Assembly: GCF_003334405.1 (NCBI RefSeq)
Contig: NZ_QOWM01000069.1
Source of the DNA: Escherichia coli
GTDB taxonomy: Bacteria > Pseudomonadota > Gammaproteobacteria > Enterobacterales > Enterobacteriaceae
Direction: 5' to 3' (one strand)
Length of the DNA stretch: 357 bases
Of this stretch, positions 1-357 are shown one piece after another. Each line of letters starts with the position of its first letter. Within the stretch, counting starts at the first letter, position 1. Made by a program: the position numbers and the translations under genes. The notes beneath the pieces were generated by a model. The model did not search any database. It was not told the DNA's origin and was given only the letters and a program-made list of their open reading frames with translations.

Positions 1-26
1 GGCCGCAGGCTGTTACCCCTGCGGCC
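1..26. repeat. Perfect 9-bp GC-rich inverted repeat (hairpin) in the ldr 3' region
   Basis: GGCCGCAGG (1-9) and CCTGCGGCC (18-26) are exact reverse complements separated by an 8-nt loop. It lies about 50 nt downstream of the ldr stop on the minus strand. It could be the ldr terminator stem (the U-tract would lie outside the window) or a REP-like palindrome; the function is undetermined. Confidence 0.35.
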
Positions 27-75
27 GGTTTCGGGCGCATATTGCCATCACGGCAGCCTGACGCCCGTTTTCACC

Positions 76-183
76 TTACTTCCGGTTACGCCACCAGCTG
101 ACAATCGCTGCGGTAATAATTCCCGCCAGGATCGGTGCTGCCAGGTCGTGCCAGAAAATCATGGCAAACTGCGCGAGCGTCAT
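76..183 (-). CDS. ldrA: Type I toxin-antitoxin system toxin, Ldr family (35-aa hydrophobic membrane peptide)
   Basis: Minus-strand ORF from ATG (complement of 181-183) to TAA (complement of 76-78), 36 codons including stop. Translation is MTLAQFAMIFWHDLAAPILAGIITAAIVSWWRNRK. From memory this matches E. coli LdrA/LdrC and is close to LdrB and LdrD (shared FWHDLAAP core, one predicted transmembrane helix, basic C-terminal tail RNRK). An AAGG Shine-Dalgarno sits 7 nt upstream of the ATG. The paralog (ldrA vs ldrC vs ldrB) cannot be resolved without flanking sequence; the symbol is the family-level best guess. Confidence 0.88.
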   Translation of the reverse strand: MTLAQFAMIFWHDLAAPILAGIITAAIVSWWRNRK

Positions 184-190
184 ATAGCCG

Positions 191-194
191 CCTT
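191..194 (-). promoter_or_regulatory. Shine-Dalgarno (AAGG) for ldr
   Basis: Minus-strand AAGG (complement of 191-194) lies 7 nt upstream of the ldr ATG at complement 181-183; the in-frame upstream ATG at complement 208-210 has no comparable SD. Confidence 0.5.
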
Positions 195-196
195 GT

Positions 197-224
197 TGTA
201 ATGACAACATTTTGCGGCTATTCT
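197..224 (+). promoter_or_regulatory. Candidate sigma70 promoter for rdl
   Basis: TTGTAA (197-202), a 16-nt spacer, then TATTCT (219-224). Each hexamer matches consensus at 4 of 6 positions, and the predicted start falls near 231, where the Rdl-like sequence begins. Alternative register: ATGACA (201-206) as the -35. This is a motif-level call only. Confidence 0.3.
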
Positions 225-230
225 TGAAGT

Positions 231-297
231 GTCTGGTTTCAAGATTAGCCCCCGTTCTGTTGTCAGGTTTTACCTCTCAACGTGCGGGGGTTTTCTC
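231..297 (+). ncRNA. rdlA: Rdl cis-encoded antisense sRNA (antitoxin RNA of the Ldr module)
   Basis: About 67 nt on the plus strand, upstream of and antisense to the ldr 5' leader. It folds into a long imperfect hairpin: CCCCCG 249-254 pairs with CGGGGG 285-290, TGTTG 258-262 with CAACG 278-282, and AGGT 265-268 with ACCT 272-275 around a TTT loop, followed by TTTT at 291-294. The sequence matches my recollection of E. coli Rdl RNAs, and a promoter-like element lies just upstream. Ends are approximate, and the paralog letter is tied to the ldr assignment. Confidence 0.7.
249..294 (+). terminator. Intrinsic terminator-like extended stem-loop plus U-tract at the 3' end of rdl
   Basis: A 5-6 bp GC closing stem (CCCCCG 249-254 with CGGGGG 285-290) encloses two further nested helices and is followed directly by TTTT (291-294). 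Seen directly in the sequence. Confidence 0.6.
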
Positions 298-357
298 TTT
301 CCAGCAACCAATGCCACCAGGGATAAAGCCCCCGCAACATTGCGCCTCACCGGATAA

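Follow-up and report, generated by a model that had tools for sequence, protein, structure and literature searches.

The Long Direct Repeats (LDR) of Escherichia coli are established type I toxin-antitoxin elements. In strain MG1655, ldrA/rdlA, ldrB/rdlB and ldrC/rdlC lie in tandem, head to tail and with a period of 535 bp, between kdsA and chaA, and ldrD/rdlD lies apart from them, between bcsG and yhjV; the arrangement given in the initial annotation of the present sequence was correct. LDR-D is the copy that has been characterised experimentally. Overproduction of LdrD has been shown to kill cells, an effect that RdlD counteracts (PMC8309996, PMC4147584). LdrD forms a membrane helix (PMC8309996; 5LBJ) and LdrA has been reported to cause a rapid drop in ATP (PMC8309996). 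The long 5' UTR of ldr is overlapped by Rdl (PMC4147584), and Gerdes and Wagner 2007 (cited in PMC4147584) put forward a hok/mok-like leader ORF, ldrX.

The stretch of DNA analysed here (hereafter the window, 357 bp in its full length) is very probably one E. coli Long Direct Repeat unit with a sense/antisense toxin-antitoxin pair, belonging to the kdsA-chaA (LDR-A/B/C) group and not to LDR-D. Given the 535-bp period, it represents about two thirds of one LDR unit; it is shorter than one period and shows no second LDR copy. The element is a well-known type I toxin-antitoxin repeat of E. coli, and its significance beyond annotation is slight. The features of the window are as follows.

1-26, minus strand: terminator hairpin of the ldr mRNA, GGCCGCAGG / 8-nt loop / CCTGCGGCC (inverted repeat read directly)
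76-183, minus strand: ldr toxin gene, 35 codons plus stop (translation, Pfam match, annotation)
99-158: sites separating LDR-B (99, 139 and 158), all in the CDS; the window has the A/C alleles T, T and A
184-357, minus strand: 5' untranslated leader of the ldr mRNA, long and incomplete (position relative to the CDS)
196-224, plus strand: possible rdl promoter, TTGTAA, 17-nt spacer, TATTCT (suggested by eye)
229-329: slot markers; LDR-A is the odd one out at 229, 233-235, 237 and 270, and LDR-C at 257 and 329
231-296, plus strand: rdl antisense RNA, the antitoxin (Rfam RF01813, annotated rdlB coordinates, fold)
263-340, minus strand: 25-codon ORF upstream of ldr, within its leader, MLRGLYPWWHWLLERENPRTLRGKT, candidate ldrX (ORF list)

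Toxin gene and peptide

The product of the ORF at 76-183 on the minus strand is MTLAQFAMIFWHDLAAPILAGIITAAIVSWWRNRK, a 35-residue hydrophobic Ldr toxin with the conserved tryptophan and a basic C-terminus. In a profile search, Pfam PF13940 (Ldr_toxin) covered residues 1-35 of the 35 with an E-value of 1.8e-24, and the peptide matched the solved LdrD structure 5LBJ with an E-value of 1.5e-10. An NCBIfam HMM scan of the toxin and the upstream ORF returned no match, which is uninformative for such short peptides. All genomes that carry the exact window sequence have this gene annotated as encoding an Ldr family toxin (WP_000170955.1).

The peptide had initially been described as fitting the A/C type, with LdrA and LdrC identical at the protein level and LdrB differing by two residues. 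Both statements were borne out, and the window peptide is identical to MG1655 LdrA and LdrC throughout. LdrB is two residues away (I9T and S29G), with one additional synonymous change in the DNA. By comparison, LdrD differs at 15 of 35 residues and LDR-D shares 81% DNA identity with the window (BLAST), and identity of the window with LDR-D was rejected on these grounds. LDR-D has in common with the window a 35-residue toxin, an Rdl encoded antisense to the leader, and an upstream ORF of 25 codons with a conserved Shine-Dalgarno (SD) sequence and ATG; it differs in sequence and in its separate bcsG-yhjV location.

DNA markers and comparison with the K-12 copies

The initial annotation had proposed counting differences against each K-12 copy. 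By BLAST, the nearest MG1655 copy was LDR-C (99.4% identity, 1 mismatch and 1 indel), followed by LDR-B (99.2%, 3 mismatches) and LDR-A (98.9%, 2 mismatches and 2 gaps, equivalent to 6 aligned columns). The differences from LDR-B are all in the CDS, where LDR-B has C99, C139 and G158, giving T9 and G29 in LdrB, and the window has T, T and A, giving I9 and S29. The differences from LDR-A are all in and beside rdl, at its 5' end (T229, TCT at 233-235 and G237 in LDR-A; G, CTG and T in the window) and at 270 (G in LDR-A, T in the window). LDR-C carries T257 and a one-base deletion at 329; at these sites the window shows C257 and retains the C that LDR-C lacks.

As a result, the window is identical to LDR-A over positions 1-228, to LDR-C over 1-256 and to LDR-B over 159-357, the last of these stretches taking in the entire leader, rdl and the initial 25 nt of the CDS. 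At the level of sequence, the window is therefore a mosaic of an A/C-type toxin gene and an LDR-B-type leader/rdl half. The assignment to the A/C type holds for the peptide only, and the noncoding half, including rdl, is identical to that of MG1655 LDR-B. Exact alignment led to the rejection of identity with canonical MG1655 LDR-A, LDR-B or LDR-C.

That the window could nevertheless be the canonical ldrA or ldrC of a K-12 strain is hardly credible. While the peptide is shared with both and LDR-C is the closest MG1655 copy, the six columns that separate the window from LDR-A and the differences from LDR-C at 257 and 329 speak against it, as does the stability of the A cluster and 257T as slot markers throughout the typed genomes. 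The same markers extend to distant, phylogroup-B1-like strains: in both E2863 and RM8385, slot 1 again carries the A-type cluster, and the nearest copy to the window, which differs from it by T257, is in slot 3. Both the A cluster and T257 thus act as markers of the slot, and neither is present in the window.

The Ldr variants of E2863 and RM8385 also include S29G alone, in slot 1, and P17S together with S29G, in slot 2. The occurrence of G29 of K-12 LdrB in different slots of other lineages suggests that alleles move between copies.

Occurrence of the exact sequence in complete genomes

LDR matches were found in all of the complete E. coli genomes searched (5,426/5,426), at 1 to 12 places per genome with a median of 4, showing that LDR copy number varies. 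The exact 357-mer was present in 13 of the 5,426, and the canonical LDR-B 357-mer was present exactly in 15 of 60 evenly spaced records (about a quarter); compared with canonical LDR-B, the window haplotype is a rare state. Twelve of the 13 genomes with an exact match were fetched and every LDR copy in them was typed. In all 12 the exact 357-mer lies beside or downstream of kdsA, so that the isolated placement at the LDR-D locus considered in the initial annotation did not occur among the genomes examined. In most genomes with the exact sequence it has the 535-bp tandem context of LDR-B.

An array ordered A-type copy, window sequence, C-type copy was found in eight genomes (N18-04097, PG20180053, EC-129, TSW4848-W1, GF31, A65EC, STK78-E and 23CRST017), and the other four of the 12 place the identical sequence elsewhere. 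J53-p1-pV-hybrid-1 (J53-p1-pV) has it in slots 1 and 2 (2466-3357 of the fetched locus) and 184/2aE in every one of its three slots. The array of IH5 holds two copies and runs kdsA, window haplotype, C-type copy, chaA. In Stbl4 the window sequence is the only full copy, next to kdsA; after it come 40 bp of a second copy and then unrelated genes. The same 357-mer is thus found in slots 1, 2 and 3 and in arrays of three, two and one full copy, which is why neither the slot nor the array size can be read from the window, as had been anticipated when it was first annotated.

Taking into consideration that the slot-1 cluster and the slot-3 markers are absent and that the noncoding half equals LDR-B, the B slot is likelier than the A or C slot. 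The best guess, a reasonably probable one although drawn from only 12 proxy genomes (middle-slot placement in 8 of the 12), is that the window comes from a K-12-like strain with three copies in its array, where it occupies the middle (B) slot as a B copy that carries A/C coding alleles. The peptide by itself would mislabel the copy, as it says A/C whereas the DNA markers favour the B slot, and a fragment below the length of the repeat cannot name the copy in the kdsA-chaA array.

Origin of the haplotype

The slot-2 state could be the outcome of gene conversion between neighbouring copies, or else an ancestral sequence that has been retained. It is plausible, at slightly less than even odds, that the haplotype is a real allele with a history of this kind. 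It would then be either the product of short-tract conversion, in which the LdrB coding alleles were replaced by those of A/C and rdlB was left untouched, with this arising more than once, including in laboratory K-12 lines, or the surviving ancestor from which A, B and C each diverged by private changes. If so, the toxin and antitoxin halves of adjacent type I modules can be reshuffled, and such reshuffling would represent a small case of concerted evolution between type I toxin-antitoxin copies on the chromosome.

The array of IH5 bears on a different origin, in which the window is a hybrid of LDR-A (left) and LDR-B (right) generated by unequal crossing-over, first in a contracted array of two copies. 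A single crossover between 159 and 228 would suffice for this, given that the window equals A over 1-228 and B over 159-357, and IH5 shows exactly the product predicted. This arrangement was found in only 1 of the 12 genomes examined, however, and in eight genomes the window haplotype still has a canonical A copy upstream of it, an arrangement that could not result from a simple A x B deletion. An origin by such a crossover is considered improbable.

The majority state of the window raises the question of assembly. The window agrees at each of the 11 variable columns with the majority-rule consensus of MG1655 LDR-A, LDR-B and LDR-C, and each K-12 copy departs from this consensus by private differences only. 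This is the sequence to be expected if mixed reads of three near-identical copies had been collapsed into a consensus at assembly or polishing, in which case the haplotype would be no real allele. The filling of three slots by one sequence in 184/2aE, and of two in J53-p1-pV-hybrid-1, points in the same direction. So do the flanks of J53, PG20180053 and TSW4848-W1, which are identical to those of MG1655, yet MG1655 and another J53 assembly (H52) have canonical copies only. Four or five of the genomes with an exact match are K-12 laboratory derivatives with flanks identical to MG1655, and since this sibling J53 lacks the haplotype, some of the exact matches may be artefacts of assembly or polishing. 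The haplotype in more than one slot, as in J53-p1-pV-hybrid-1 and 184/2aE, would reflect either recent homogenisation by gene conversion or an artefact of repeat polishing.

On the other hand, in eight assemblies, produced by different laboratories, the A-specific and C-specific markers are intact and slot 2 alone differs, and copies one mismatch away from the window are native to slot 3 of distant strains. Seven natural isolates have in common a flank SNP that K-12 lacks, as would fit inheritance of the allele within one lineage. The flank of GF31 is clearly distinct (16 mismatches), and its array shows the same order of A-type copy, window sequence and C-type copy. A collapsed consensus is regarded as an unlikely source of the haplotype, though a more serious contender than the crossover. 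As complete assemblies disagree at these near-identical 535-bp repeats, any claim at the SNP level about an ldr paralog calls for reads spanning the array.

Rdl and its candidate promoter

The antitoxin side of the window is that of MG1655 rdlB: the rdl sequence is identical to it and the coordinates correspond to annotated rdlB. The Rfam model RF01813 (rdlD) matched 231-296 on the plus strand with 91.4 bits, against a gathering score of 50, over model positions 1-66 of 66. The RNA is encoded in cis, facing the 5' leader of ldr, and lies upstream of position 183, where the CDS starts. Its predicted fold has a free energy of -26.7 kcal/mol (z=-4.5), with a stem-loop at 247-292 followed by a U-run, and a terminator scan found a terminator-like site at 272-291 plus a T-run.

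The possible rdl promoter ends 6 nt ahead of the Rdl 5' end. A sigma-70 consensus scan of the window at a threshold of 9/12 found no site; the possible promoter is missing from the scan list because it has only 8/12 consensus matches, below this cut-off.

The ldr leader and regulation of toxin synthesis

The minus strand would be transcribed into a stable, highly structured ldr mRNA with a long leader, encoding the 35-residue Ldr toxin, a single-helix membrane protein. The plus strand would give an Rdl RNA of about 66 nt, fully complementary to the ldr leader, that would block toxin synthesis post-transcriptionally, presumably at the step considered below.

The promoter of ldr and the first few bases of its leader are outside the window, beyond position 357. 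In the flank of an identical copy, the minus strand carries TAGTAT about 17-22 nt past window position 357, and this hexamer is a putative -10 element. At the other end, the inverted repeat at 1-26 corresponds to the 3' hairpin in the predicted minus-strand fold. The U-run of this terminator is just outside the window: an identical copy with its flanks has ...GACAAAAAT before position 1, so that the minus strand reads AUUUUUG after the hairpin. The predicted fold of the ldr-sense strand over 1-357 has a free energy of -159 kcal/mol (z=-7.1), far better than that of shuffled sequences, and closes the ends of the RNA by pairing GGCGC at the 5' end with GCGCC at the 3' end. In this predicted fold, the 5' partner is the spacer between the SD sequence and the ATG of the upstream ORF and the other partner is the 3' untranslated region. 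The predicted end-to-end closure resembles that of hok mRNA.

Rdl is placed over the ldr leader, clear of the ldr start codon, and covers the 3' part of the upstream ORF at 263-340. The leading proposal for regulation is a hok/sok-like mechanism, in which Rdl would pair over the upstream ORF (ldrX) and translation of ldr would depend on translation of that ORF. Pairing of Rdl would then stop the ribosome traffic that may be needed to open the ldr start. The ORF at 263-340 on the minus strand is a candidate ldrX. The window, LDR-D, one Salmonella copy and one K. aerogenes copy all have the same SD-like GGTGAGG and the ATG of this ORF, while its length is 25 codons in the window, 25 in LDR-D, 87 in Salmonella and 11 in K. 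aerogenes. With a length that varies while the SD sequence and ATG are kept, a conserved initiation site fits better than a conserved peptide. The Salmonella ORF runs in frame into ldr, giving a fusion of 87 amino acids. The difference in the length of the upstream ORF between species counts against the model of coupling through ldrX.

Comparison with hok/sok (with mok) shows several common traits, namely a long structured toxin mRNA with predicted pairing of its 5' and 3' ends, an antisense RNA over the leader and off the ribosome binding site of the toxin, and an upstream coupling ORF, as proposed for ldr. The toxin families, by contrast, are unrelated, ldr belonging to the Ldr/Fst group and not to Hok. 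The Rfam sok model (RF01794) matched the ldr leader at 181-333 on the minus strand with a sub-threshold score of 29.3 bits (gathering score 59, E=6e-5), and membership of the leader in the sok family was rejected on this score. The match stops exactly at the ldr start codon.

LDR copies at other loci

RM8385 has LDR matches at 7 places, of which only 3 are in the kdsA-chaA array, so that the extra copies must be at other loci; some genomes have up to 12 places. LDR matches were also found in 21 records labelled as plasmids, all of them non-mobilizable. Several are chromosome-sized or have the chromosomal neighbours bcsG, tsx and dppF. A plasmid origin was rejected, as such records look like pieces of chromosome and are probably mislabelled chromosomal contigs.

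The Stbl4 array breaks off 40 bp into the second copy, where it is joined to yghO and glcC (4358-4620 of the fetched locus). These two genes are not part of the kdsA-chaA locus in MG1655, and the junction is a strain-specific rearrangement. In K. aerogenes NCTC10006, two tandem ldrD-like genes adjoin dppF (1-565 of the fetched locus), a pair indicating that the LDR-D-type locus is tandemly duplicated in another genus too.
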